A stretch of DNA of 64,000 bases from a virus (lineage: Duplodnaviria; Heunggongvirae; Uroviricota; Caudoviricetes), in the IMG/VR virus record IMGVR_UViG_3300021403_000003, positions 49,952 through 113,951 of that record; one strand, written 5' to 3'. Shown one piece after another: positions 2,451 through 63,809 of the stretch. A program made the translations under genes and the position numbers. Numbering within the stretch: the stretch's first letter is position 1; each line of letters opens with the position of its first letter. Below the pieces are notes generated by a model, which was not told where the DNA came from, did no database searches, and saw only the letters and a list, made by a program, of their open reading frames with translations.

Positions 2451-4721
2451 ATGTCTAATGTTTCTTTTGATCTCACTGCTGTAACTTATAACATCAGTGG
2501 GTCTAATGGTGCAGCACAGACTTCGCTTCAGATTCCTAATACGCATTTCGAACTGTCACCTAACATAGCTTCAAATACAGCCGTTATATCATATTCTGTT
2601 GGTGGACAAAATACAACAATACAATTTGCTTTAGGGGCTGTGAGTGTTGTATACAATTCTATTTCGAATTTATATTCTGTTAATGTTCAATCTGCTGGGT
2701 TGCACGTCTTTGTTCCGCCAAATTGTGATTATAGATATCAGTATATTTCTAGCTTATTATTCAATGTATTATCAGTGAATTCTGGTGGTCAAACTTATAC
2801 ACAGAATAGCTTATATCAACCAAATACATTCACCATACTGGCTACTATTGTTGCAACAGGTAACAATACTCAGTATCCTGCTATTGTTTCTTATGGTATG
2901 GATAATATTGCGCCATTTGAATCATATATTCTTCAAACACAATCGACAGACGGTAACCATCCTGCAGATTTTTATATGGTTACAGCCAATTCATCAAATA
3001 CTGCTCAAGGTATCAGTCACCAAGTTTTTGGTAATACGAAACTTGTACAAAACACATTCTATTCATTGGCTGTAACATATGATGGAACGCATGCAAATCT
3101 TTACCTGAATGGTAATTTGGAAAAATCAGGAAATGTTACAGGAAATCTATTCTACTTCGGTAATAATGGACTTGCTGTCGGTAGCAAATACAATTTTTCT
3201 AATTCCAGTTTCACTGGAAATGTATCAAATGTTTACATCTATAATTATTCTTGGACTGCAAATCAAGTACTCGCGTATTATCAAGCTCAGACCAGTAACG
3301 TGACTGGGTATGCTGCTCTCAATATCCCATATCCTCGTAAATTGTTGTTAGCAATAGGTGGAGTTGAAGCCTATACCAACAATCAAGTTTTGAGTGCATT
3401 TTCACAATTTGATGCTGTTGTTTTGGGTGGTGGATGGGAGCAATGGAGTGCCAGTGGTCGTGTTATGAATTCCACTGTTGCAAACATTAAGTCTGTTTCT
3501 ACAAATACTGCACCAAATGGTACATTAGTGTTCATGTATCTGGATTGTGTTGGTGCCTATTCACCAACACCGAATGTAGGTTCAAGTGTAACTGCAAATG
3601 TGAATGATCCAACACCTATAATGACCAAGGAAATGGCAAACAACAATTGGTGGTTGTATAATTCTGGTTCATCAGGAACAATTTTTGCCTCTCCTTCTTA
3701 TTATAATTTGATCACATTTGCTGCTCCTAATCTTACGAGTGCATATGCAGGTACAAATTGGAAAGGTGAAACACCATATCAATATTGTGCAGCATATGCA
3801 TATAATCTTCGTCTTGGAACAAATGGTGATGCTAGGTTCTCTTCTTTATTAACAAACAACAAAGCGAATAATGCTGATGGTATGTTTTTGGATAACATGT
3901 GGAGAGAACCTTTTGTTACTGCAGATTGGGAAAGAACAGGTACAGCTCAAGCTACAACTGATCCTGATGGTCCTGTTTCTGAAGCATTTGCTAATGGTGA
4001 AGCACAATTCTTCATTACTCTACAATCCATTGCTAATAATGCAAACAGTCCATTGATGAACTTTGGCAATTTTGGAGATTATGCAAGGTCTGTCAGTGCT
4101 GCCAATGGTAATATGAATCAAATCATGCATGGTGGTTTGCTTGAAGAATATTTCGGATTATCAAATTCACCAGACACATATGCACCATATGCAACATTAC
4201 AAGCACAATACGCTCGTGCTGTTGCAATTTGTCAACCTCCTAAATTTGTTGTTCTTCATGGTTATTTTCCAAGTGATAGCAGTGTTGTTCCACAAAATAC
4301 TGAATACATGTGGGCTCGGTATATCATTGGGTCTTCATGTATGCAAAATGGTGCTGGTGCAGTTAGTAGATTATCACAAGGTTACAGCGCGGATACATTA
4401 GCAGAAGTTGGTTGGTATGATGAATGGAATTATAACATTGGATATCCAATTTCTGGTGCTGCAGGAGCCCCACAAACAACTGCTAATACAAATGGTTTAT
4501 GGATGAGACAATTTTCTGGTGGTTCTACAAAGAAAGCTCTTTGGGTTGTTAATCCTGCAAACAATGGAACGCAAACTGTTACTACTGCTATGATTGGTGG
4601 GGCTGGTGTTTGGAAATTCATTGCTGGTACACAGGATGCAGCAAATAACACAGGTGCAGTAATCAACACTTCATTCACTCTTTCTGAAAGAGATGCGAGA
4701 CTGTTGATCTCAGCAACATAA
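2451..4721 (+). CDS. Tail fibre/tailspike-like protein with a ConA/LamG-like lectin domain and a possible C-terminal glycosidase-like domain
   Basis: The segment YDGTHANLYLNGNLEKSG...VSNVYIYNYSWTANQVLAYY fits the laminin-G/pentraxin jelly-roll pattern; 756 aa with N/T-rich flanks. Confidence 0.5.
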   Translation: MSNVSFDLTAVTYNISGSNGAAQTSLQIPNTHFELSPNIASNTAVISYSVGGQNTTIQFALGAVSVVYNSISNLYSVNVQSAGLHVFVPPNCDYRYQYISSLLFNVLSVNSGGQTYTQNSLYQPNTFTILATIVATGNNTQYPAIVSYGMDNIAPFESYILQTQSTDGNHPADFYMVTANSSNTAQGISHQVFGNTKLVQNTFYSLAVTYDGTHANLYLNGNLEKSGNVTGNLFYFGNNGLAVGSKYNFSNSSFTGNVSNVYIYNYSWTANQVLAYYQAQTSNVTGYAALNIPYPRKLLLAIGGVEAYTNNQVLSAFSQFDAVVLGGGWEQWSASGRVMNSTVANIKSVSTNTAPNGTLVFMYLDCVGAYSPTPNVGSSVTANVNDPTPIMTKEMANNNWWLYNSGSSGTIFASPSYYNLITFAAPNLTSAYAGTNWKGETPYQYCAAYAYNLRLGTNGDARFSSLLTNNKANNADGMFLDNMWREPFVTADWERTGTAQATTDPDGPVSEAFANGEAQFFITLQSIANNANSPLMNFGNFGDYARSVSAANGNMNQIMHGGLLEEYFGLSNSPDTYAPYATLQAQYARAVAICQPPKFVVLHGYFPSDSSVVPQNTEYMWARYIIGSSCMQNGAGAVSRLSQGYSADTLAEVGWYDEWNYNIGYPISGAAGAPQTTANTNGLWMRQFSGGSTKKALWVVNPANNGTQTVTTAMIGGAGVWKFIAGTQDAANNTGAVINTSFTLSERDARLLISAT

Positions 4722-49214: not shown

Positions 49215-50701
49215 GTGTCATCTACGTCGAGAAAATCAATGAATCACAATTAAAGATTCATACTGAGCAAGCGATCGAACAAGAACTTTGGGAATTCTAC
49301 AGTTTCAGAGACCCAAATTACAAGTTCACTCCACAGTACAGAAAATACAAGTGGAATGGTTATATTCGTCTCTTCCAGAAACGATCTAAAACTCTCCCAG
49401 CAGGATTGTTCAGACACCTCTGTATATTTGCTAAGGAACGGAATCATACCATCCAAGGATATCAATATCTGGCCCAAAACTTTTCCATAGAGGATGCTCG
49501 GAACTACACGAAAGGTTTAAACATCACAACCAAGGGTATATCCATTACACCCTATGATCATCAGGTCCTTGCTATAACAAAGGCTCTGAGGTATAAGAGA
49601 ACCATCTTAGAAAGTTCCACATCAAGTGGCAAATCATTGATTTGTTACACTATTTCTCGATATTTGATCGAAAAAGAAAAGAGAGGATTAATCATTGTAC
49701 CAACTATTGGATTGGTTGAACAGATGTACAGTGATTTTCAAGATTACAGTTCATTCAATGGTTGGAATACCAGCACCTATGTTCACAAAATATATGGTGG
49801 ACTTGACAAATTTAGTGTCAAACAGATTTATCTATCAACTTGGCAATCCATTTATGAGATGGAAGATCCTGATTGGTATAGACAATTTGAATGGGTTGTT
49901 GGAGATGAAGCACATAAATTTACAGGTAAATCATTGACTGGACTCATGACCCAAATGACCAATGCTGATTACAGAATTGGTATGACAGGAACAGTACAAG
50001 ATGGTGAAGTTCACCGTTTGGTGCTAGAAGGAAATTTCGGACCAATTGCAAAGATCGCTACCAATAAAGAGTTGATGGACAAGAAAATTGTTAGTGATCT
50101 GTTAGTTAAATGTTTAGTGCTCAGATATCCACAAACTGAATGTTATGCTGTCAGTAAAATGGATTATCACAAGGAATTGGATTTCCTCGTCACCCATAAA
50201 TACCGCAACAATTTCATCAAAAACCTTTCTTTATCATTGAAAGGTAACACGATGATTCTGTTTCAATTTGTAGAAAAACATGGTAAGGTTTTGTATGAAT
50301 TGATTAAACAAGCAGCTGGTAACAGAAGTGTGTATTTGATTTGTGGTGAAACAGAAGTTGAGCAAAGAGAATACATCAGAAAGATTGTCGAAACTGAAAA
50401 TGATGCAATCATCATTGCATCATTTGGTACATGTCAAGAAGGAATTTCTATTAAGAAAATTCACAGTATAATTTTTGCAAGTCCAAGTAAATCCAAAATC
50501 AGAGTCCTTCAATCAATTGGTCGTGGACTTCGTCTTGATGAATCTAAGGAATTTGCCACCTTGTACGACATCGCTGATGATTTAAGGATTGGTGACGAAA
50601 TTAATATCACATTGCTTCATTACGTGGAACGTCAAAAGCTCTATCACAGGGAGCAATTCAAAGTAAAAGTGTATAATGTAAATCTTGGGAGTAAATCATG
50701 A
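49211..50701 (+). CDS. uvsW: UvsW-like SF2 DNA helicase
   Basis: Walker A SSTSSGKS, motif II VVGDEAHKF, downstream TGT and QSIGRGLR helicase motifs. Confidence 0.75.
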   Translation: MSVIYVEKINESQLKIHTEQAIEQELWEFYSFRDPNYKFTPQYRKYKWNGYIRLFQKRSKTLPAGLFRHLCIFAKERNHTIQGYQYLAQNFSIEDARNYTKGLNITTKGISITPYDHQVLAITKALRYKRTILESSTSSGKSLICYTISRYLIEKEKRGLIIVPTIGLVEQMYSDFQDYSSFNGWNTSTYVHKIYGGLDKFSVKQIYLSTWQSIYEMEDPDWYRQFEWVVGDEAHKFTGKSLTGLMTQMTNADYRIGMTGTVQDGEVHRLVLEGNFGPIAKIATNKELMDKKIVSDLLVKCLVLRYPQTECYAVSKMDYHKELDFLVTHKYRNNFIKNLSLSLKGNTMILFQFVEKHGKVLYELIKQAAGNRSVYLICGETEVEQREYIRKIVETENDAIIIASFGTCQEGISIKKIHSIIFASPSKSKIRVLQSIGRGLRLDESKEFATLYDIADDLRIGDEINITLLHYVERQKLYHREQFKVKVYNVNLGSKS

Positions 50702-53156: not shown

Positions 53157-54871
53157 TTTTGTTTGAAGTAATAAGATGGAAAAATCTGTTGTCTACAGGT
53201 AATAGTTGGACAGAAATCTGGCTCAATAAAAGTTCCACAACCTTGATTATTGGTAAGAATGGTCATGGTAAAAGCACAATTATCGATGCTATTTGTTATG
53301 CTCTATTTGGCAGCCCATTCAGGAAAATCAATCTCGAGTTGTTGATCAACAGTATCAACCTAGCAAACACCAGGGTTGAACTTGAGTTCAGTATAGGCAA
53401 TAAAAAGTACAAAGTCATTCGTGGTATGAGACCTCAAACATTTGAGGTTTACGAAAATGGAATTTTACTGAATCAAGATGCTTCACTAAGAGATTATCAG
53501 AAGAACCTAGAGAAAAATATTCTTGGTTTCAATATGAAGTCATTCACTCAGGTCGTAGTGATAGGATCAAATTCCTTCACACCATTTATGAGGCTTGGGC
53601 CACAAGACCGTAGAGCTATCATCGAGAATTTGCTGGACATCGAGGTGTTCAGCTCCATGAACATTATAGTCAAGAAGAAGGTAAAAGACAACAATGACAT
53701 CATCAAAAGTTCCAAGTCAAAAATTGAAGGATTGGTGGACAAAATTGCTCTTCAGGAAAAGTTCATCAATGACAAAAAGAAAGACCATCAAAAGATTATC
53801 GACGAAAGACAAGTTTCTCATGACAGTATAAAGGTTGAAATCTCGGTATTGAAGAAATCTGCACATGATATTCAACTTGATATTAACACTTTGTTGGGAA
53901 AGATAAATGGTGAGACTATCATCAGAGAAAATGCAAGGAAACTCGAATCATTCAGAACCAAAATAGAAGCAAAGATCAATGGATTGGAGACCGAGAACAA
54001 ATTCTTTGAAACTCACAATGACTGTCCAAAGTGTCATCAACCATTAAGTAATAAGAAGGCTGTCTGTGACCATAATGATAATGAACTTGTGACACTCCGT
54101 CAGGGGTTGGGTCAACTCTTCACCAAACAACACCAAGTAGAGACTCAGATCAATGTTCTTAAGGATATTCAAGCTAAGATAAACAAACGTCAACTTGAAT
54201 TGCGAGAAATACAAACTCGCATTTCTGAGAAGCAACATAGTGTCGATGGGATTGCTGCCAAGATTCAGGAGCTAAAAGATGCTGCAAAGACCACAATTAC
54301 TGACGATCTTCTCAAGGCAAAACAGGACCTGGAAACGGAACTAAAGAAGATAATAAATGAACGAAATGAAGCATTGGAAACGAAGACTTATCTCGATGCC
54401 GCTGTGGTTCTACTTCGGGACGAAGGCATTAAAGCCAAAATTGTTAAACAATATCTTCCTGTTATCAACAAACTTGCCAATAAATACTTGTCCGAACTGG
54501 ACTTCTTCGCTGACTTCCATCTTGATGGAGAATTCAATGAGACCATCAAGTCCCGTCATCGAGACAAATTCAGCTATGAGTCATTCAGTGAAGGACAAAA
54601 ACGAAGAATCGATCTCAGTTTGCTTTTCACTTGGAGAGCTGTCGCCAAACTTAAAAACAGTGTTAACACCAACCTCTTAATCCTTGATGAGATTTTGGAC
54701 GGTTCATTGGATGATGATGGTATGGAAGAATTCATGAAGTTGTTGAACACCTTTGGTAATGGTACAAACAATTTCGTCATCAGTCATCGTGGTGATATGT
54801 TGGCTGATAAGTTCGACAATGTACTCAAATTCAAAATGTCTGGTTTATTTTCAGAGGCAGTAATAGCATGA
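53153..54871 (+). CDS. Recombination endonuclease subunit gp46 (Rad50/SbcC-like ATPase)
   Basis: Walker A IGKNGHGKSTIIDAI, central coiled coil, CPKC zinc hook-like motif, C-terminal LILDEILDGSLD. Confidence 0.8.
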   Translation: MILFEVIRWKNLLSTGNSWTEIWLNKSSTTLIIGKNGHGKSTIIDAICYALFGSPFRKINLELLINSINLANTRVELEFSIGNKKYKVIRGMRPQTFEVYENGILLNQDASLRDYQKNLEKNILGFNMKSFTQVVVIGSNSFTPFMRLGPQDRRAIIENLLDIEVFSSMNIIVKKKVKDNNDIIKSSKSKIEGLVDKIALQEKFINDKKKDHQKIIDERQVSHDSIKVEISVLKKSAHDIQLDINTLLGKINGETIIRENARKLESFRTKIEAKINGLETENKFFETHNDCPKCHQPLSNKKAVCDHNDNELVTLRQGLGQLFTKQHQVETQINVLKDIQAKINKRQLELREIQTRISEKQHSVDGIAAKIQELKDAAKTTITDDLLKAKQDLETELKKIINERNEALETKTYLDAAVVLLRDEGIKAKIVKQYLPVINKLANKYLSELDFFADFHLDGEFNETIKSRHRDKFSYESFSEGQKRRIDLSLLFTWRAVAKLKNSVNTNLLILDEILDGSLDDDGMEEFMKLLNTFGNGTNNFVISHRGDMLADKFDNVLKFKMSGLFSEAVIA

Positions 54872-55665
54872 ATGAAGTGTTTCAAGCACCAGAAATTGTT
54901 GGTGGTCTTCCTAACAAAGAACTCAATGTGGCATCTGACAAGTCATTGGTATTCGTACCGAGTCAAAGAAGAATCACAGCAAAGGGACCCGAAGGACCAG
55001 TTGAATTTGAGATTTTCAAGGTAGTGGATGGATATAACCCTATCCTCAAACAGAAGGCTGTAAATTGGGATTTCTCCAATCCACCTGGACCATTATATTA
55101 CATTGCCATGTCTATGATCCAGACAATGCTCCGCAACGGAGGAGTGGGTCTTGCTGCCAATCAGTGTGGATTACCATACAATCTATTTGTAATGGGTACT
55201 GGACCTAATTTCATGGAAGTTATTGTAAATCCAAGAATTATCAAAACTTCAGGAGAAGAAAAATCTCAGGAAGGATGTTTATCATTTCCAGGATTATATC
55301 TCAAGGTTAAACGAGCAACTCACATTGAAGTTGAGTATGAAGATCTCAAAGGTATGACAAAGAAAGTTGCATACGATGGTCTGACTGCCAGAATTTTCTT
55401 GCATGAATTTGATCATTTGCAAGGTGTCAAATACACCGAGCTTGTTAAATCCATTGATCTTGGTAGAGCAAAGGAAAAAGTCAAGAGCAATCTGAGAAAA
55501 ATGAAACATGTTCGTGAGGATTCTGAAAGGAAGCAACGAGCATTAGTTCATGAGGCAGCAGTTGAGAAGGCTAAACCATCACCAACTATCAATCAACAAT
55601 TGATTTTAGACCAAAAAGCACGTCAAGTTGATGGTAACACTATATTGACTTTCAGCTCAACGTAA
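54868..55665 (+). CDS. def: Peptide deformylase
   Basis: GVGLAANQCG (motif 1), EGCLSFPG (motif 2), HEFDHLQG (motif 3). Confidence 0.8.
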   Translation: MNEVFQAPEIVGGLPNKELNVASDKSLVFVPSQRRITAKGPEGPVEFEIFKVVDGYNPILKQKAVNWDFSNPPGPLYYIAMSMIQTMLRNGGVGLAANQCGLPYNLFVMGTGPNFMEVIVNPRIIKTSGEEKSQEGCLSFPGLYLKVKRATHIEVEYEDLKGMTKKVAYDGLTARIFLHEFDHLQGVKYTELVKSIDLGRAKEKVKSNLRKMKHVREDSERKQRALVHEAAVEKAKPSPTINQQLILDQKARQVDGNTILTFSST

Positions 55666-55720: not shown

Positions 55721-55750
55721 CTTCTATCCATAAGTCGATAGGAGACTAGC

Positions 55751-58153
55751 TTGACCACCTTACCCCACGCCAACGGTCGCAAAATTGACCTGACGGTTAC
55801 CAAGGCACTCCTCGCCAAGCTCCTCGCTTCAGAGAACCTGACAGTGATTCATGAGCCTATCGAGACTGCGTATTTCGACCTGCGTGATCGTGTACTTCAC
55901 TGCCCCATTTTCAAGGACATGACCAGCAGCCTATACGACCTTCTTATGGGTCATGAGGTTGGTCATGCCTTGTACACTCCCATGGAGGGTTGGCACAAGG
56001 AGATAGTAAAGTGCAATCAGAATCACGAGCATGAGGATTCATGCTATGATGTAAATTTCAAAGGCTTCCTGAATGTTTGTGAGGATGCCAGGATAGAGAA
56101 GAAAATTAAGCGCAAATTCAATGGTTTGCGCTCTAGTTTCGCTCAAGCTTATTCTGAACTGATGGATCGCGACTTTTTTGGAGTCAAGGGTGTAGATGCT
56201 TCCAATCTGAATTTGATCGATCGCATCAACCTCTTTTTCAAAGTTGGTTCTCATTATCCAGTTCAGTTCAATCAAGAAGAGCAAGCTTACGTTCAACAGT
56301 TGGAAAATGCTGAAACTTGGGATGATGTTGTTACGGTTGCTCGTGCGATCTACAAATATGATCAAGAACAGCCGAAGATCAACAACTTGAGCCAGTTGAA
56401 GAACCTTAAAGGTAAAGGTCAACAGAAGTTTGACAAACCTGGTAAGTCTGATCAAGGTTCTGGTAAGCAGAAAGATCAGGACAATCAAGATCAGGAGAAC
56501 GCTTCTGATTCCGACCCCAGTGGTAAAGATGATTCCCAAGATGGTAAAGGTTCTGATGGTGGTCAAGGTGACAAATCAGAAAAGAGCGACAAATCAGCTC
56601 AAGGGGAAGGAAAGACTAGCAATAATGGGGAAAAGAAGGATGAAAAGGACAAAAAAGGCAAGCAGGTTGGTCCATTAGGTGGTATCAACAAGGAAAAGAC
56701 CCCTCCGACTAGCCCACAGTCAGTAACTGACCAGAGCTTTCGTCACAACGAAAATCAATTGGTCAACACTAATAATTTCGATCAGTTGATCAATGCAACC
56801 TTTCCCAAGGCAGATTTGGGGAAGGTCATATATGACGTGAAAACAGTTGTGGAGTTCTACGAGCGTCAGGCCAGCATTGAAACTAAAACAGCTTCTGTGG
56901 AAATTCTCAAATTTTTCACGGTCAAAAACAAAGCTTCTGTGATGCACCTACTGAAAGAATTTGAGATGCGCAAGAACGCTCGTCAATATATGCATGCCAA
57001 GATCACTCGCACCGGAGAGCTGGATTCTGAATTGTTGTCAGAATATCGCTTTCGGAATGACATCTTTTTGCAGAGCACTGAGACATTGAAGGGTAAAAGT
57101 CATGGTATGGTGATGTTTCTGGATATGTCAAGTTCCATGAATGGTAATTTCATGTATCATGCAATAGAACAAATTCTAACGCTTACATCTTTCTGTGACA
57201 AGGCTCACATGCCTTATGATGTATATGGGTTTGCTGATAACTTGGAATACTCTGCAAAGGTCAACATCAAAGGTTATAGTACCAAAGGTTATGGTACAAA
57301 CAATGACTTATTCAGTCACGGCATCCGTGATCTACAATGCAACACTGGTTATTTCCATCTGCGTCATCTGATTTCCAGCCGTGTTTCTGGTCTATTGCGC
57401 AAGCGTGCAGCTCAAATGCTTGCAATGTTGGCTGGTTTTCATACCTCTGATCAGAGGATCCCCAGTAAAGACGGAAAGTCTGAAGATATCCATCCAGTTC
57501 GTCGGTTAATGAGTAAAGTAAAGGATACATCCGCATGCGGACTTGGTACACATGGTACCCCATTGAGTGAGTGTATCATTAGCTCCCGTCAAATCATTGA
57601 GAAATTCAAAACTGACACCAAGGTTGATATCACTAACGTGATCTATTTGTCAGATGGTAATGGTTCTCAGATTGGGATACCACAAGGTCAAAGTGGTAAC
57701 AAGCTCATGATCACGGACCCAGTAACCCGTAAGCACAAATATGTGGATAATATCTCCAACACAAGGTATGACGAAAACGTTAAGGTACAATCTGCTTTGG
57801 TATCTTTTGTTAAGGAACTCACTGGTTGTCGTCACATTTGTTACTACATTTGTGATTCCAGTCATGTCAGATCCATGGCCAAAAAATTGAAAGATAGCAA
57901 TGCACGTAAGGAAGCGGAAGAAACATCAAAGAAATATGGTTATGTAGCTGTACCGATGATGGGGTTTGACCGCTACTTCTACATCAGCACTGAATTCATG
58001 GGCTACAAAGATAAATTCACTGGACAGAAAGTTGAGGGTTCCACTGAAAATCTGGAAAAGGCTTTCAGCCAGAATATGGTATCCAAGAAAGCTCAACGTG
58101 CGGTAATGCAACAGTTTGCTCAAGATATTGCTACCATTGACGGGTTGGAATAA
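55751..58153 (+). CDS. CobT-like vWA-domain protein with N-terminal HExxH motif and central K/D/G/Q-rich disordered linker; TTG start in track
   Basis: MIDAS DMSSSM in the C-terminal vWA domain; GHEVGHALY zincin-like motif; AGGAGACTAGC SD before TTG. Confidence 0.55.
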   Translation: MTTLPHANGRKIDLTVTKALLAKLLASENLTVIHEPIETAYFDLRDRVLHCPIFKDMTSSLYDLLMGHEVGHALYTPMEGWHKEIVKCNQNHEHEDSCYDVNFKGFLNVCEDARIEKKIKRKFNGLRSSFAQAYSELMDRDFFGVKGVDASNLNLIDRINLFFKVGSHYPVQFNQEEQAYVQQLENAETWDDVVTVARAIYKYDQEQPKINNLSQLKNLKGKGQQKFDKPGKSDQGSGKQKDQDNQDQENASDSDPSGKDDSQDGKGSDGGQGDKSEKSDKSAQGEGKTSNNGEKKDEKDKKGKQVGPLGGINKEKTPPTSPQSVTDQSFRHNENQLVNTNNFDQLINATFPKADLGKVIYDVKTVVEFYERQASIETKTASVEILKFFTVKNKASVMHLLKEFEMRKNARQYMHAKITRTGELDSELLSEYRFRNDIFLQSTETLKGKSHGMVMFLDMSSSMNGNFMYHAIEQILTLTSFCDKAHMPYDVYGFADNLEYSAKVNIKGYSTKGYGTNNDLFSHGIRDLQCNTGYFHLRHLISSRVSGLLRKRAAQMLAMLAGFHTSDQRIPSKDGKSEDIHPVRRLMSKVKDTSACGLGTHGTPLSECIISSRQIIEKFKTDTKVDITNVIYLSDGNGSQIGIPQGQSGNKLMITDPVTRKHKYVDNISNTRYDENVKVQSALVSFVKELTGCRHICYYICDSSHVRSMAKKLKDSNARKEAEETSKKYGYVAVPMMGFDRYFYISTEFMGYKDKFTGQKVEGSTENLEKAFSQNMVSKKAQRAVMQQFAQDIATIDGLE

Positions 58154-58165
58154 AGGAGATTAAAC

Positions 58166-58567
58166 ATGATCGGTATGTTTCAACCACCAATCAAATGTAT
58201 TTGTGGTGATACTGAGTTTCATCAATACACTGGCAGCATCGGTCAATTCAGGTGCAAAAAGTGCGGAACTTCTCATGACATGACCAAGGATGTGATCATT
58301 ACAAACTTGGAAGCCATGGCTGAAGATTTCATCCGGGCACGTGGAACTCGTGACTACTTGACTGTGCTGGTAGTTGATGTTGATCGACACATTGAAAATG
58401 GTGGTTGGCAATTGGTACAGTTAGCAATTGGATCACCCCAGATACAATCTTCTGTGCGTTCTCCACGTCTTGACATTAATTTCCATACTTTGGATCACCT
58501 CTACGAGCAACTCGTTAAGTTGTTTCCTTATTCTATATTCATTCGTCTTAATTTGCCAAGATCCTAA
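58166..58567 (+). CDS. Zn-ribbon protein
   Basis: CICGDTEFHQ ... CKKCGTSHD. Confidence 0.4.
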   Translation: MIGMFQPPIKCICGDTEFHQYTGSIGQFRCKKCGTSHDMTKDVIITNLEAMAEDFIRARGTRDYLTVLVVDVDRHIENGGWQLVQLAIGSPQIQSSVRSPRLDINFHTLDHLYEQLVKLFPYSIFIRLNLPRS

Positions 58568-58660
58568 CTAATTGACTCAATTGGTAATTTACCACTTTAC
58601 TTCAATCATTGATTCAACGAATATAGCCCCTGATCGATAAATAAACAGGAGACTAGGACC

Positions 58661-60055
58661 GTGGCCAAAGAGACGTTTTATACGCCAGAGAGACAAGAAG
58701 AGTACTGCAATGGTATTGCAAGTCACTTCAACTCAGACGTTATTACAGCCAAGCAGGTATCAGAGTACAATTCACTCAAAAACCTGCCGTATCCCTATTT
58801 TCTCACGATGGACAAGAAGCGCAGCGCAGGTTGGGGCAAATACCGCGTGCGTGGTCAGGGTGAAGCGCCTGTCAAGGTTGATAAACAGGCTGTATCAAAG
58901 GCTGTTTTCGAGGAAATGGTAAAAAGTTTTGTGCCAGAAAAGAGTAGCACATACATACCATTTGGTTTCTTTAACGACTGCTATTCCATTATCAACTCCA
59001 AGATTTTTTATCCTGTATATGTCACTGGTCTTTCTGGAAATGGCAAGACTGAGATGATCATTCAGGCTTGCGCAAAAGCAGTTCGTGAATTGATACGAGT
59101 AAACATCACGAAGGATACCCACGAGCTGGATCTGATGGGTTCCAACATCCTCGTGGATGGTAACACCTTCTATCAAGAAGGCCCGGTTATTACTGCAATG
59201 AAGCGTGGTGCAATCCTGCTGTTAGACGAGACCGACTTGGGCAGTGAACGCCTGCTCTGCTTGCAACCGGTTCTCGAAGGCAAGCCAGTCCTCAACAAGA
59301 AGACCGGTGAGATTGTACATCCCAAGGAAGGGTTCAACATTTTCGCAACAGCTAACACCAAGGGCCAGGGCAACGCTGATGGCCGTTTCATCGGTACCAA
59401 CACATTGAATGAAGCGTTCCTGGAGCGTTTCGCGATTACGGTTGAACAGGAATATCCAAACGAACAAACAGAGACCAAAATTCTCGAGAAGAACTTCGAG
59501 GAATTGGGTATTGAACTTGCTACCCACAAAATGTTTTTGTGGAGTTTGATCAATTGGGCGCAGTTGGTTCGTAAGAGTTATGCCGAGGGCGCAGTTGGTG
59601 AAATTATCAGCACTCGTCGCTTGATTCACATTGTTAAAGCTTACTCTATCTTCAAGAACAAGAAGAAATCAGTGACTTTGTGTTTGAATCGGTTTGATGA
59701 AGAAACCAAAGTTGCCCTTGTTGATTTTTGGGATAAGGTCTTCAAGGAAGAACCAAAACCTGTTGACCCGAATGAAAAGGTTATGCCTCCTGGTACTACT
59801 AAGGCTACTCAGAACAAGGAACGTACTGATATTGAGTTTGTTCCTGTTAGTGGAGTGATGACTAACAAGTTCAAGACCCCAGTTGCCCTCAAAGCTGAGA
59901 ATGATCCTATTGGGAAGAAAGTGCTTGCGGTCTATTCACACAACAACAAGACAACCAAACCGATGGATCAGTTGCCGAACCCGACAAGCGTTCGTGAGTT
60001 TGAGATGGCTGTCCAGCGTATGGTTGAGGCCAATAGTATCGGAGGTGCAGCATAA
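58661..60055 (+). CDS. cobS: CobS-like MoxR-family AAA+ ATPase; GTG start
   Basis: Walker A GLSGNGKTE, Walker B ILLLDETD, arginine-finger region; the usual partner of the upstream vWA protein. Confidence 0.75.
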   Translation: MAKETFYTPERQEEYCNGIASHFNSDVITAKQVSEYNSLKNLPYPYFLTMDKKRSAGWGKYRVRGQGEAPVKVDKQAVSKAVFEEMVKSFVPEKSSTYIPFGFFNDCYSIINSKIFYPVYVTGLSGNGKTEMIIQACAKAVRELIRVNITKDTHELDLMGSNILVDGNTFYQEGPVITAMKRGAILLLDETDLGSERLLCLQPVLEGKPVLNKKTGEIVHPKEGFNIFATANTKGQGNADGRFIGTNTLNEAFLERFAITVEQEYPNEQTETKILEKNFEELGIELATHKMFLWSLINWAQLVRKSYAEGAVGEIISTRRLIHIVKAYSIFKNKKKSVTLCLNRFDEETKVALVDFWDKVFKEEPKPVDPNEKVMPPGTTKATQNKERTDIEFVPVSGVMTNKFKTPVALKAENDPIGKKVLAVYSHNNKTTKPMDQLPNPTSVREFEMAVQRMVEANSIGGAA

Positions 60056-60163: not shown

Positions 60164-60221
60164 CTGAGGTGCAAGACCTCAGGTTGGGGCCAGATGTGAA
60201 TAGCATCTGGCCCACTTTTTA
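60164..60221 (+). terminator. Tandem hairpins (CTGAGGT/ACCTCAG, then GGGCCAGATG/CATCTGGCCC plus T-run): rho-independent terminator
   Basis: 10-bp GC stem, 7-nt loop, ACTTTTTATT. Confidence 0.7.
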
Positions 60222-60264
60222 TTGGTCCTATAATTTATCTATATAATGCAGTGATGGTAAAATT

Positions 60265-61575
60265 TTGGAGAATGATATGCCAAAGACTGTTTTTGTTGAT
60301 AAACGAGAACACGAAGAACTACTTGGTACCTTCCTGAATGATTCGCATTACGAAACTTTGATTGATGATGATATTGATGTATATGTCAGGGATCGTTTTG
60401 GTAATGAATCTATTGATGAAGACAATGTTGTCTTGAAGTTTCGTAAAAACTGGTTCACAAAAGAACAACAGGAAGGTGCATATGAAGGACTGAAAGATGC
60501 GGCAGTTCAATCTCAAAATCGTGGTTTAGCAGCTGGACCAAAGGGCGAGAAATGCTTGAATCGTGATTGGGTCACACCTGAACAATCTTTGTTTTTGAAG
60601 TTCTTGGAAAAAGTCACATCCAAACCAACAGAAGAAGATGTAGCATTCATCAAAAGTTCTGCTTCCGTTACAGAAGATACAAGGGGATTGGTTTGGCTTG
60701 GTTCTGAGAAAGAAAAGCACAACTTTGATTGGGTTGTTTGGATTAACAAGGTTGTATCTGGTGGAATGACTCTTGATGATATTAAAAAAGATGTCAATTG
60801 GATCAATGATGAATTGATCAGCGATACAACCTATGCTAATCCTGTAGATTCAGGGATTGCTGGTTGGTTTGGACGTTACCCAAGGATTCCATATGGAAGA
60901 GCAACTGCTTACACCAATCATAACCGTCAAAAGTTCGAGTTGTGCTACCCATTTATGCAACAACTCTCACTCGGTTTCGAGCAACTATTACCCCAACGTT
61001 TTTCGAATCAAATGGCAGAAACCGAAAAGCTTGATCCCAATTTCTACATACCAGGCACTCCATTCACAACAATCACTGTTAATAGAAATTTTCGGACAGC
61101 CGCACATCGAGATGCAGGTGATCTTGCCAAAGGATTCTCAAATCTAACTGTTGTAGCAAAGGACAAAAATTATGAAGGTTCTTATCTCGTTTTACCCGAA
61201 GCTCGTGCTGCTGTTAACATTCGTCCTGGCGATCTTTTGCTTGTGGGAAATCATGATTGGATTCATGGCAACACACCCATATTGGCACCCAATGTTGGAG
61301 ACCTTGAGCGTATTTCTCTTGTTTGTTATTTTCGCGAAGACATGTTGGATCTTGGTTCAAAGGAATATGAAGATCAAAGATTCAATTATGTAGAAACTCG
61401 TCGCAAGAACCAATCTCACCCTTTATGGTGGTCACGCTGGAATGGGGTGAGTAATGGTATGTGGGGTGAAGAATGGTTCAATTTTCTACGTGAGAATAAT
61501 AAGGAAAATCTCATAACTAAGTATCATCCAGAAACCACCATTGAAAATAATTCACTTGAGGATTTCTTTACATGA
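60265..61575 (+). CDS. 2OG-Fe(II) oxygenase superfamily protein (large; DSBH core in the C-terminal half)
   Basis: HRDAGD (HxD) ... PGDLLLVGNHDWIHGN (distal His); the true start may be the Met at 60277. Confidence 0.5.
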   Translation: MENDMPKTVFVDKREHEELLGTFLNDSHYETLIDDDIDVYVRDRFGNESIDEDNVVLKFRKNWFTKEQQEGAYEGLKDAAVQSQNRGLAAGPKGEKCLNRDWVTPEQSLFLKFLEKVTSKPTEEDVAFIKSSASVTEDTRGLVWLGSEKEKHNFDWVVWINKVVSGGMTLDDIKKDVNWINDELISDTTYANPVDSGIAGWFGRYPRIPYGRATAYTNHNRQKFELCYPFMQQLSLGFEQLLPQRFSNQMAETEKLDPNFYIPGTPFTTITVNRNFRTAAHRDAGDLAKGFSNLTVVAKDKNYEGSYLVLPEARAAVNIRPGDLLLVGNHDWIHGNTPILAPNVGDLERISLVCYFREDMLDLGSKEYEDQRFNYVETRRKNQSHPLWWSRWNGVSNGMWGEEWFNFLRENNKENLITKYHPETTIENNSLEDFFT

Positions 61576-61808
61576 TGTACAAGTGCATTGAAGCTCCTTG
61601 CTGTTATCAAAATCCTGTTCCAGAACTTCAGTTGCTTCCAAATGGAGAATTTGAGTGTCCATATTGCAAGCGAAACTATGATCAGCAAACTCTTAACAGG
61701 ATATACAAAACAACTCCTTGTATAGGGAATGATGAGGAATGTCATCTATTTTGCTGTAATATCTGGTGTGAAGGTGATTGTGAATATTGTGGAGTTGAAA
61801 GATCATGA
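61572..61808 (+). CDS. Cys-rich small protein (Zn-binding)
   Basis: CPYCKRN ... CCNIWCEGDCEYCG; ATGA overlap. Confidence 0.4.
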   Translation: MMYKCIEAPCCYQNPVPELQLLPNGEFECPYCKRNYDQQTLNRIYKTTPCIGNDEECHLFCCNIWCEGDCEYCGVERS

Positions 61809-62014
61809 CATATGAAGAACTCCGTCAACGTTGTGTGAATTTTTCTGAAATGCATCCAAACAATCCATGTAATTTAATTGATATTGCTAGACATGCTAAA
61901 CGTAGAGCAATAGAAAGAGGAAACATGGATAAGTTTGAAGAACTCGTTATTGAATTAGCAAATTTCATTGAAAATAAGAGAAAACCTAAGAGATGCTCAA
62001 CCAAGAATGGGTAA
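61805..62014 (+). CDS. Hypothetical protein
   Basis: ATGA overlap. Confidence 0.35.
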   Translation: MTYEELRQRCVNFSEMHPNNPCNLIDIARHAKRRAIERGNMDKFEELVIELANFIENKRKPKRCSTKNG

Positions 62015-62736
62015 CAAAGGTGACTTCTGATCTTCAATCAGAAGATGCTCCTATCATCTGCAAACCATCAAGAACGACAGGTTATACCTTGGGTGATAGC
62101 ATTGCGGTCTTTGCAGGGCTGGATTATGACTACCTCTTTACCAGCCCACCTTGCTATGAGGACCTAGAGTCTTTTGGTGTAACACCGAAACGACCTGAGA
62201 CCTACAAGACCCATTTCTTGAGTCAGTGGTTACCGAAGGCTGTTCCAAAACTTGGTACTATTACGATCTCATTTACTGGTGCACGTCGCCATGATGGAAA
62301 GATTCTCCCTAAATCATACTTCTTACAACAGTGCATGTATGAGTGTGGATACTATCTGCGTGACATCAAAAAGGTTAAGAAATCAAACAGCTTCAATGCC
62401 TATTCACACCAGGTGATTGAGGTTCTGACCTTCCAGAGGGAAGGCACAAAGGCGGTTTATAACCTCCGGAAGGAAAAGTTGTATGACAGTTATGGTAAGG
62501 ACGTTTGGGGACCATTTACCAAAGAACAATTGGTTGATGGTGAAGTTGTCGGTCAGCCCATTCAGATTGCTGAATATTGTGTAATGAACTTCACCAACGA
62601 AGGGCATTTGGTTCTGGATCCATTTGCTGGCATCGGGACAACTTGCGAAGCATCTCGTAGACACAATAGACAATACCTTGGGTATGAGATTCGAAAGTCA
62701 ATCTGGCAGCATGGAGTCAATTTCTACGGCCTATGA
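61993..62736 (+). CDS. DNA methyltransferase, beta-class amino-MTase (N4-C or N6-A), orphan
   Basis: Motif IV FTSPPCY precedes motif I VLDPFAGIGTT (order IV then I is the beta class); no adjacent restriction endonuclease. Confidence 0.75.
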   Translation: MLNQEWVTKVTSDLQSEDAPIICKPSRTTGYTLGDSIAVFAGLDYDYLFTSPPCYEDLESFGVTPKRPETYKTHFLSQWLPKAVPKLGTITISFTGARRHDGKILPKSYFLQQCMYECGYYLRDIKKVKKSNSFNAYSHQVIEVLTFQREGTKAVYNLRKEKLYDSYGKDVWGPFTKEQLVDGEVVGQPIQIAEYCVMNFTNEGHLVLDPFAGIGTTCEASRRHNRQYLGYEIRKSIWQHGVNFYGL

Positions 62737-63809
62737 AAACAAATATTGATTATCGCGATCCACAATACAGAACACTTGGATTCGACAAATTTTACGAATT
62801 TCATATTTCAACTAATGACTGCTCTCCTGATATTGCAGTAGAAACTTGGATCGCCAATAAGGAAAATTGGGATTACGAGAAACGTTGTGTAATGGCACTG
62901 TTTCATGGTGCAACTTACGCTGGGCCCTGTGAAACAATGTTTGCTGACAAGTTTCCAGTTTTCAATAGTGAAATCATTTCATCAGCCATAGAATTCTTTG
63001 AAATAAACAAGAAACGACTCCTGTTCAGCCCTGATTGTAAATATCGTAAAATGGTGTTCCCAAAGTTCCTTCAGAGTATTGGTGACAGTTTGATGTTTTG
63101 CACACTTGGTGAAAAGATCAAAAGCCTAATGTATTCTGATGATCCTAAGAAGAATTATTTGGCTCTTCAGAAGTGGTGCATGGAGAATTGGTATCATTGG
63201 GGCAGAATGGGTCATTGGTGTTTCTCAGAAGCTTTACATCGTTTTATTAATGCTCCTATAGAAGCACCAACTATGGAATTTGGTCCAGGAGGTAAGAGCC
63301 ATACTGCAGGTTGGGCATTCTCAATTGGTCTCGATGATTATGTTGATAAAGCAGAAACTCTAGAACCAACCGCTGTTGAATATCTTGAAGGAACAGCACG
63401 CAAATACATTACAGAATTCCAACAACATCATCCTCAATTGAAGCTTGCTCAATATTTCACTCTTGAAACTGCTTGTTGCAACTACAAACGTCAACACAAA
63501 GGTAGTCGTTATGGTGGATGTTACATAGATGAACAATACGATGAAATTCTATACATGCAAAGCCTCTGGCCAGAATATAAGTGGCTCTGGGACCTATATA
63601 TACAAGGAAGACAAGCAGTTATCCCATTAAGCTTGCTTTTTGAAAATTTCAGCAATATTGGTAATGCTTATATGACCAGTTGGTGTAATGCATTGAAAGA
63701 TTGGGGAAGAATTCCAAGAATAGAAGCTTGGCATAATAAACAACCTCAAGAGTGGCGTCATATTACTTTCATGCCTTGGTATGGTGATGGTGGACTGGAA
63801 AATTTATGA
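62733..63809 (+). CDS. Hypothetical protein (Cys/Trp-rich)
   Basis: ATGA overlap; 358 aa. Confidence 0.4.
   Translation: MKTNIDYRDPQYRTLGFDKFYEFHISTNDCSPDIAVETWIANKENWDYEKRCVMALFHGATYAGPCETMFADKFPVFNSEIISSAIEFFEINKKRLLFSPDCKYRKMVFPKFLQSIGDSLMFCTLGEKIKSLMYSDDPKKNYLALQKWCMENWYHWGRMGHWCFSEALHRFINAPIEAPTMEFGPGGKSHTAGWAFSIGLDDYVDKAETLEPTAVEYLEGTARKYITEFQQHHPQLKLAQYFTLETACCNYKRQHKGSRYGGCYIDEQYDEILYMQSLWPEYKWLWDLYIQGRQAVIPLSLLFENFSNIGNAYMTSWCNALKDWGRIPRIEAWHNKQPQEWRHITFMPWYGDGGLENL

Follow-up and report, generated by a model that had tools for sequence, protein, structure and literature searches.

The question raised by this locus is what a phage does with a pair of genes that resemble those for two cobaltochelatase subunits, CobS and CobT. 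The locus lies in a 64,000-nucleotide stretch of viral DNA (positions 49,952 to 113,951 of IMG/VR record IMGVR_UViG_3300021403_000003; the whole stretch is called the window), where positions 55751-60055 hold three open reading frames (ORFs), all in the same orientation: a CobT-like adaptor, a small cysteine-rich ORF and a CobS-like ATPase. As judged from its sequence, the adaptor is truly, if distantly, homologous to CobT, has its domains in the same order and keeps the metal-site residues lost by the chelatase subunit. The pair was known before as the cyanomyovirus module of 'peptidase' and cobS, and the window copy is a divergent soil-phage member of it. The two genes, their domains and the ORF between them are located as follows.

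55751-58153, + strand: CobT-like adaptor gene (800 aa), an ORF with a TTG start; predicted M48-like zincin N-domain, disordered linker and vWA/MIDAS C-domain
55751-56365, + strand: N-terminal gluzincin-like (M48-like) domain, aa 1 to ~205
55952-55966, + strand: HEVGH (H68-E69-x-x-H72), candidate zinc-binding/catalytic motif on predicted helix 59-75
56072-56098, + strand: NVCEDARIE (aa 108-116), candidate 'glutamate helix' for the third metal ligand, on predicted helix 101-122
56366-56740, + strand: low-complexity linker rich in K, G, D, Q and S, aa ~206-330
57011-57106, + strand: candidate 'shaft' directly ahead of vWA strand beta1, aa 421-452, TGELDSELLSEYRFRNDIFLQSTETLKGKSHG
57101-58150, + strand: vWA domain with a complete MIDAS, namely D458-x-S460-x-S462 (57122-57136), T603 (57557-57559) and D635 (57653-57655)
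58166-58567, + strand: 133-aa ORF with CxC...CxxC, possible Zn ribbon, with its own AAGGAG ribosome-binding site; lineage-specific
58661-60055, + strand: CobS-like MoxR-type AAA+ ATPase, 464 aa, with a GTG start after AGGAGA
59027-59050, 59213-59230 and 59345-59359, + strand: ATPase motifs Walker A, Walker B and sensor-1 region

Conserved motifs of the CobT-like adaptor

The original prediction, made from the sequence alone, had assigned to the 800-aa protein the motif GHEVGHALY with its HExxH core and an intact MIDAS. All of these were found where it had placed them, at aa 67-75 (HEVGH at aa 68-72) and aa 458-463 (DMSSS(M)). The number of HExxH motifs expected by chance in a protein of this composition is 0.04. 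The motif was present in all 120 of the best homologues and in 135 of 136 further full-length representatives of clusters formed at 50% identity, the exception being REIGH. Among full-length homologues from T4-like phages the combined count is thus 255 of 256; one extra hit (P0270) is truncated at its N-terminus, begins past the motif and is not among the 136.

Conservation of HExxH together with downstream acidic residues had been set beforehand as the test of the proposed zincin site, and besides the motif itself the acidic helix proved to be strongly conserved. A motif of the NVxEDARIE type follows HExxH in 131 of 137 representatives. In an alignment of 43 sequences H68, E69 and H72 were invariant, as were N108, D112, R114 and E116, and E111 was conserved in at least 90%. 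E111, D112 and E116 all lie on predicted helix 101-122; E111 and E116 are kept in genuine CobT as well, which is without HExxH. The same alignment showed all five MIDAS residues (D458, S460, S462, T603 and D635) and seven residues of the segment before the MIDAS (G422, Y432, F439, G448, K449, H451 and G452) to be invariant. The HExxH, EDxRIE and MIDAS motifs were found also in cultured cyanophages, in Pelagibacter phage Mosig and in an Ochrobactrum phage. The linker between the two domains (K23/G18/D16/Q15/S15 among 125 residues) is poorly conserved among homologues.

The family is large, with 5427 cluster representatives (50% identity, E<=1e-3), and PHROG 459, annotated 'peptidase', matched the adaptor over its full length (E=3e-153). 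No match was obtained to Pfam CobT and CobT_C (PF06213 and PF11775) or VWA (E<=0.1), or to any NCBIfam model (E<=1), the CobT model TIGR01651 included. Phmmer and profile searches of PDB sequences with the 800-aa protein or its N-domain returned low-complexity matches to the linker or nothing, and nothing was found among PDB sequences with the N-domain of a CobT-related protein from a phage-plasmid.

Relationship to genuine CobT

The link to genuine CobT was seen only by profile-profile comparison (hhalign) through phage-plasmid intermediates. Rhizobiales orthologues, recovered from genomes with the C-domain sequence of the solved CobT, served as the set of genuine CobT (63 proteins with 61 distinct N-domains). 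The phage N-domain matched the N-domain of the CobT-related phage-plasmid proteins with a probability of 98.2% (E=6e-14), and the phage-plasmid N-domains matched those of genuine CobT (E=6e-5 over 184 columns). The phage C-domain matched the phage-plasmid group at E=2e-9 to 6e-11 and genuine CobT at E=9e-5, the latter match covering both the shaft and the MIDAS region. The pre-MIDAS segment aligns with the pre-MIDAS region of genuine and phage-plasmid CobT. None of the 63 genuine Rhizobiales CobT proteins contains HExxH: in the alignment, the mobile-element proteins have HEVAH where genuine CobT has S-M-A-L-R, and EDaRIEk where it has EQARVEA.

The architecture of the adaptor had been taken as an argument against a cobalamin role. 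This argument did not survive the comparison, as genuine CobT has the same zincin-like N-domain, linker and vWA/MIDAS domain. A structural preprint on CobSTN (bioRxiv 10.64898/2026.07.21.739949) describes the CobT N-domain as M48C-like and docked on the small domain of CobS. The CobT linker is disordered, comprises about 90 residues and occupies the same place as the linker of the window protein, and ahead of the vWA domain come a strand, two helices and a 'shaft', which is inserted into the CobS pore.

Structure prediction agreed with this layout. The N-domain was modelled (predicted local distance difference test, pLDDT, 84.6) as a helix, a three-stranded sheet and further helices, where strands 31-35, 41-43 and 48-52 precede predicted helix 59-75, which contains HEVGH, and the predicted fold is M48-like. 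A Foldseek search of this domain against the PDB (April-2026 library, evidently without CobT structures) gave no significant E-values. In the AlphaFold2 model of the C-domain (pLDDT 80.9) a strand is followed by helices and a long helix, then by an invariant segment modelled with low confidence, and finally by strand beta1, which carries the MIDAS; this predicted order matches the CobT_C layout of beta0, alpha0', alpha0, shaft and VWA. The pre-MIDAS segment was modelled poorly (pLDDT <50 for aa ~434-448, numbered as in the full protein). Foldseek matches of the C-domain were the MIDAS domain of MDN1 (E=1.4e-4), ITIH1 and the NorD VWA domain bound to NorQ.

The CobS-like ATPase and the intervening ORF

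The third ORF encodes a CobS-like AAA_5 protein in which Walker A (GLSGNGKT, aa 123-130) and Walker B (ILLLDE, aa 185-190) are intact; the sensor-1 region reads ATANT (aa 229-233). It matched Pfam AAA_5 (E=1.7e-13) and PHROG 249, 'porphyrin biosynthesis' (E=4.8e-100), and missed the equivalog level of the CobS model TIGR01650, with 79.9 bits against a cutoff of 558.55. Identity to genuine CobS is about 28-29% over aa 119-364. Matches among PDB sequences were the AAA domains of Midasin, CobS (E=8e-21), NorQ and CbbQ. With T4-like ATPases, the bit scores were ~120 for the phage-plasmid group, 97 for genuine CobS, 84 for the IncC protein Vcrx089 and 68 for IncHI2. The T4-like ATPases are about equally far from each known group, and function is therefore not transferable by similarity alone.

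The ATPase carries extra extensions of ~115 aa at its N-terminus and ~90 aa at its C-terminus. The C-terminal extension (aa 373-464) is common to the ATPases of the window and of its soil relatives (458-466 aa) and is not found in cyanophage CobS (~356 aa); it gave no family match. In Pfam searches CbbQ_C was found in cyanophage and soil relatives and not in the window ATPase. The phage records also include CobS-like AAA_5 genes that are more distant and frequently carry the annotation 'porphyrin biosynthesis': 52 records are from Listeria phages, and others are from phages of Vibrio, Rhizobium, Pseudomonas and Clostridium.

Between the two genes, a Zn-ribbon gene had been proposed. A cysteine-rich ORF is indeed present there, with C11, C13, C30 and C33 forming the CxC...CxxC pattern, but it is lineage-specific and lies outside the conserved unit: in the close relative L089 an unrelated ORF of 76 aa stands in its place, and a second close relative, L090, does not have it. 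It matched no Pfam, PHROG, NCBIfam or PADLOC family. The ORF was considered as a third component of the module and rejected, being unconserved in close relatives and without a family.

Distribution and genomic context in phages

The window belongs to a T4-like myovirus, as it encodes the large terminase, tail sheath, portal, major capsid protein, UvsW, gp47 and gp46. An identical protein is encoded on a 177-kb Joint Genome Institute (JGI) contig. The nearest relatives (58% and 45% identity), from farmland and further JGI metagenomes, share the local gene order. The nearest relatives having this origin, the phage is not demonstrably a cyanophage; it is a soil-type T4-like phage. The cyanophage framing of cobS in the original prediction holds for the pair, which is a known cyanophage module, and is not demonstrable for the window.

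By tblastn, the adaptor was found in 463 phage records, nearly all from Kyanoviridae and Pelagibacter phages and mostly annotated 'peptidase', and the ATPase in 582 phage records. Both genes gave the same record counts in the groups named Synechococcus (365), Cyanophage (61) and Prochlorococcus (24). In all T4-like relatives examined the two genes occur together and next to each other. Their place in each relative inspected is between gp47/gp46 and gp45/gp44, and variable small ORFs separate the two genes. The proposal of a conserved AAA+/vWA pair was borne out by this co-occurrence and fixed position. The module was named cobST by Liu et al. 2021 (PMC8651126), and Iyer et al. 2021 (PMC7824862), writing on T4-like jumbo phages, treated it as a chaperone pair of MoxR and vWA proteins that includes an N-terminal metallopeptidase and proposed a part in virion assembly. 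These published interpretations conflict with each other, and both labels are half right; the idea in the original prediction had thus already appeared in print. The literature was searched for phage-specific experiments on the function of cobS or cobT, and none were found.

The starts of the CobT-like and CobS-like genes share the context AGGAGACTAG. Two further signals were read from the sequence around the pair.

55740-55745, + strand: Shine-Dalgarno-like AGGAGA, six bases before the TTG start of the CobT-like gene
60187-60223 (also given as 60187-60213), + strand: terminator-like hairpin with an 11-bp stem, seven G-C pairs and a T-rich tail, predicted to end the transcription unit after the CobS-like gene

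A promoter scan showed no enrichment (11 sites compared with 11.7 expected in shuffled sequence). The upstream neighbour of the CobT-like gene (54868-55665) encodes a peptide deformylase with a C-terminal extension of ~70 aa. Both soil relatives and Ochrobactrum phage vB_OspM_OC have the order deformylase, CobT-like, CobS-like as well, and in Pelagibacter phage Mosig a deformylase is also near the pair. Directly downstream of the pair lies a predicted DNA hypermodification cluster (60265-63809 of the window). It consists of a Tet/JBP 2-oxoglutarate (2OG)-Fe(II) dioxygenase at 60265-61575 (PF12851, E=1.5e-23), two small Cys-rich ORFs at 61572-62014, an N6/N4 DNA methylase at 61993-62736 and an amino acid:DNA transferase (ADDT) at 62733-63809 (PF18724, E=5.9e-11). 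The Tet/JBP and ADDT genes are retained in the soil relatives L089 and L090. None of the three proteins of the locus matched PADLOC at E<=1e-3, and a known anti-phage defence system was rejected for lack of such a match.

Related modules of phage-plasmids and plasmids

Proteins named 'cobaltochelatase CobT-related' by NCBI are encoded on phage-plasmids upstream of a MoxR ATPase and dnaE, and the hosts of the phage-plasmids with this pair are Enterobacterales and Acinetobacter. A sublineage of these proteins with QEVAK, KEVSS and similar sequences at the HExxH position (L005, Acinetobacter p5669 2574-4496, and relatives P0121-P0240) keeps the Glu and an EEARVE helix. By its sequence, this histidine-less sublineage may offer a natural 'catalytically dead' comparison set.

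A tblastn search of plasmids with the CobT-like protein gave no match at E<=1e-3; the plasmid partner proteins were found through the ATPase and then compared by hhalign. Homologues of the window ATPase were present in 4332 plasmid records. IncHI2 plasmids have the order ATPase, DUF3150 and a 670-aa vWA protein with HEAGH at aa 70, an acidic linker and the MIDAS sequence DISAS. On IncC plasmids the ATPase gene is followed by a hypothetical gene, ssb, bet, exo, DUF3150 and the gene of a 598-aa vWA protein, which contains HEAAH, NVLEDCRIER, a linker rich in Q, G, K and D, and the MIDAS sequence DMSSSM. The phage N-domain profile matched the vWA proteins of IncHI2 (E=2e-8) and IncC (E=4.5e-5). 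The modules of both plasmid types adjoin ssb-bet-exo and toprim genes.

On IncC plasmid NZ_LT985222.1 (128614-136607; L087/L091) the experimentally defined operon for host-defence evasion (hde) starts with the CobS-like ATPase and the run of genes reaches DUF3150 and the HExxH-vWA gene, and IncHI2 plasmid NZ_MK962305.1 (15175-19818; L088) has the same trio of ATPase, DUF3150 and HExxH-vWA. Roy 2020 (PMC7498323), checked for vcrx094, vcrx095 and vWA, does not discuss the vWA/HExxH gene. In tblastn searches of the window, Vcrx090 and DUF3150 gave nothing better than E=0.9.

Possible functions of the pair

We consider it somewhat probable that the pair forms a motor-adaptor machine of the CobS/CobT type, from a phage/plasmid branch, with a protein as its client and its intact zincin site in use. 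By analogy with the structures of CobSTN, NorQD, CbbQO and Midasin, six ATPase subunits would assemble into a ring, the N-domain of the adaptor would dock on it, and the conserved pre-MIDAS 'shaft' (aa ~421-448) would be threaded into the pore. An acidic residue of the client protein might then be held at the MIDAS face, and ATP hydrolysis would pull on the shaft, remodelling or extracting the client. The tethered zincin domain may cut the client or a partner, or at least bind a metal on which the reaction depends. As the client, a host or phage protein encountered early in infection is most likely, and not CobN; the pair therefore most likely has no function in cobalamin biosynthesis. Around the pair, the window showed neither an ORF of CobN size nor any other cob gene. 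The original prediction had opposed a chaperone-type machine to a cobalamin role. A remodeller is indeed better supported than a straightforward cobalamin role, and the exclusion of cobalamin is favoured, not proven.

Several points weigh against this motor-adaptor reading. HExxH conservation could reflect metal binding and not catalysis. About 20 of 120 phage-plasmid homologues are without one or both histidines (QEVAK, KEVSS); because of this loss the N-domain should also have a metal-independent role, and docking on the ATPase is the probable one. Among characterised proteins, genuine CobS is one of the nearest to the ATPase, with 97 bits compared with 84 for Vcrx089. Cyanobacterial hosts have CobN and are without CobST (literature via Liu et al. 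2021, PMC8651126), and a chelatase role in cyanophages may be compatible with such hosts.

That last possibility corresponds to the proposal of Liu et al. 2021 (PMC8651126) that viral CobS and CobT take over host CobN and raise (pseudo)cobalamin, for example for B12-dependent ribonucleotide reduction, and the same authors note that many prokaryotes have cobN without cobST. The homology to CobS and CobT, though distant, is real and includes both domains and the shaft region. We nevertheless regard a genuine cobaltochelatase as unlikely, since neither protein is an equivalog (79.9 bits against 558.55 for CobS and no match to the CobT equivalog), HExxH, missing from genuine CobT, is kept in 255 of 256 phage homologues, and the gene order is opposite to bacterial cobS-cobT. 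The module context is always DNA replication and recombination, never cob genes. The module is also carried by Pelagibacter phages, Enterobacterales phage-plasmids and IncC/IncHI2 plasmids, whose hosts are not known to have CobN; SAR11 and E. coli are not known to use a CobN chelatase. The plasmid copies count likewise against a MoxR-vWA chaperone that aids the assembly of structural proteins while its peptidase domain processes them, because conjugative plasmids produce no virions. That proposal, made for T4-like jumbo phages (Iyer et al. 2021, PMC7824862), was drawn by analogy from the MoxR-vWA system required for tail development of Acidianus two-tailed virus. The pair lies in the replication/recombination block, apart from the structural genes, and cobS is treated as early in P-SSM2 (PMC6628666), so that a virion-assembly function appears very improbable. 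We are equally sceptical of a chaperone that inserts metal into another metalloenzyme, such as the peptide deformylase, the gp47 nuclease or the 2OG-Fe(II)/Tet-JBP oxygenases, with HExxH as a metal relay and not a protease. The MoxR-vWA pairs CobST, NorQD and CoxDE are metal-insertion systems, a deformylase gene is directly upstream in the window, two soil relatives and the Ochrobactrum phage, and histidine loss in some lineages would fit a dispensable relay site. However, the pair occurs in most cyanophages and deformylase in only a few (PMC7029224), no client is apparent that phages, phage-plasmids and IncC/IncHI2 plasmids have in common, and HE[VI][GS]H on a gluzincin fold is the classic catalytic signature.

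Evasion of host defence is the most interesting candidate for the client side, and the sole one with experimental backing in a homologue, through an indirect link. It would have the machine capture restriction or defence complexes through the MIDAS early in infection and dismantle or cleave them, which we think possible but rather improbable. The IncC gene at the vcrx089 position (AAA_5 and CbbQ_C) is homologous to the window ATPase. According to Roy 2020 (PMC7498323), vcrx089 with vcrx090 protects against type I restriction, with a 25-fold drop in V. cholerae transfer, and Dimitriu 2024 (PMC11602122) gives increases in EcoBI and EcoKI restriction of 424- and 906-fold upon deletion of vcrx089-090. 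The same IncC gene cluster runs on to the HExxH-vWA protein of 598 aa. Reverse transcription PCR primed in the DUF3150 gene (vcrx094), as described in PMC7498323, placed vcrx087, vcrx089 and bet on one transcript, in an assay that excluded the vWA gene. An early role would agree with cobS of P-SSM2, an early gene used as the early-gene marker of that phage (PMC6628666), and in Pseudomonas phages vcrx089-like genes correlate with infectivity. Yet the demonstrated IncC partner is Vcrx090 and not the vWA protein, the window has no homologue of Vcrx090 or DUF3150, and the T4-like ATPases are about as far from Vcrx089 as from genuine CobS. A broader version, which we hold to be doubtful, would make the cobS/'peptidase' module of marine and soil T4-like phages an anti-defence machine in a role common to phage-plasmid, IncC, IncHI2 and SXT-type modules: the ring would pull on a MIDAS adaptor holding a host immunity complex, an active M48-like zincin would cut it, and genuine CobT would be a derivative that lost the peptidase residues.

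The choice between these readings matters beyond this locus; the window copy is ordinary in itself. CobS is among the most widespread cyanophage 'auxiliary metabolic genes' (AMGs) and is routinely tallied in viral ecology surveys as a gene of cobalamin or nucleotide metabolism. This vitamin B12 reading is challenged by the obligatory partner, a CobT homologue that keeps a protease-type metal site lost in the chelatase subunit, and by the presence of the module on phage-plasmids and multidrug-resistance plasmids, where it is common and a related ATPase is experimentally anti-restriction. If the motor-adaptor reading is true, many 'B12 AMG' annotations are wrong.

Comparison with known systems

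In its N-domain the adaptor resembles the M48/M56 gluzincins and minigluzincins (ZMPSTE24/Ste24, BepA, BlaR1 and selecase) and the metalloprotease domain of ArdC, all of which have an HE[VI][GS]H helix after a three-stranded sheet and then an acidic helix. The window N-domain has no significant sequence similarity to these proteins, has no membrane segments and is fused to a vWA adaptor.

The hde region of IncC plasmids shares with the window a CobS-like AAA_5 ATPase, Vcrx089 being a family-level homologue of the window protein (tblastn E~1e-14; 84 bits), and likewise lies among genes of DNA metabolism. The ATPase and vWA genes are separated by other genes in IncC and IncHI2, whereas they are adjacent partners in phages, with small ORFs between them. 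The experimentally required partner in IncC is Vcrx090, which is absent from the window, and anti-restriction has been seen only for vcrx089-090.

The phage-plasmid group (Acinetobacter p5669, Pectobacterium Drgb1) has the same architecture and gene order as the window, with replication genes adjoining. Most of its members carry HEVAH and EDxRIE, and hhalign gave probabilities of 96-98% to the window family for both domains, whereas in pairwise comparison the resemblance to the window protein is marginal (tblastn E=8e-7). The phage-plasmid CobT-related proteins pass the gathering scores of Pfam CobT and CobT_C and the window protein does not.

The cyanophage 'peptidase' (PHROG 459) and cobS (PHROG 249) agree with the window pair in gene order, position and HExxH/EDxRIE/MIDAS motifs. 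Identity of the window proteins to those of cultured phages is only about 30-36% for the adaptor and 43-56% for the ATPase. The window pair differs from the cyanophage module also in the extra ~90-aa C-terminus of the ATPase, the intervening lineage-specific Cys-rich ORF and the origin of its closest relatives in soil metagenomes.

Genuine CobSTN (PDB 9uka and related) has an AAA_5 motor, the same adaptor layout and adjacent genes, as in the window pair. The two systems differ in gene order, cobS being directly upstream of cobT in 73 of 80 bacterial loci and the CobT-like gene preceding the CobS-like gene in phages. They differ also in the fourth MIDAS residue, which is T603 in the window protein and N518 in CobT, and in the motif itself: HExxH is intact in the window protein and replaced by S-M-A-L-R in genuine CobT.

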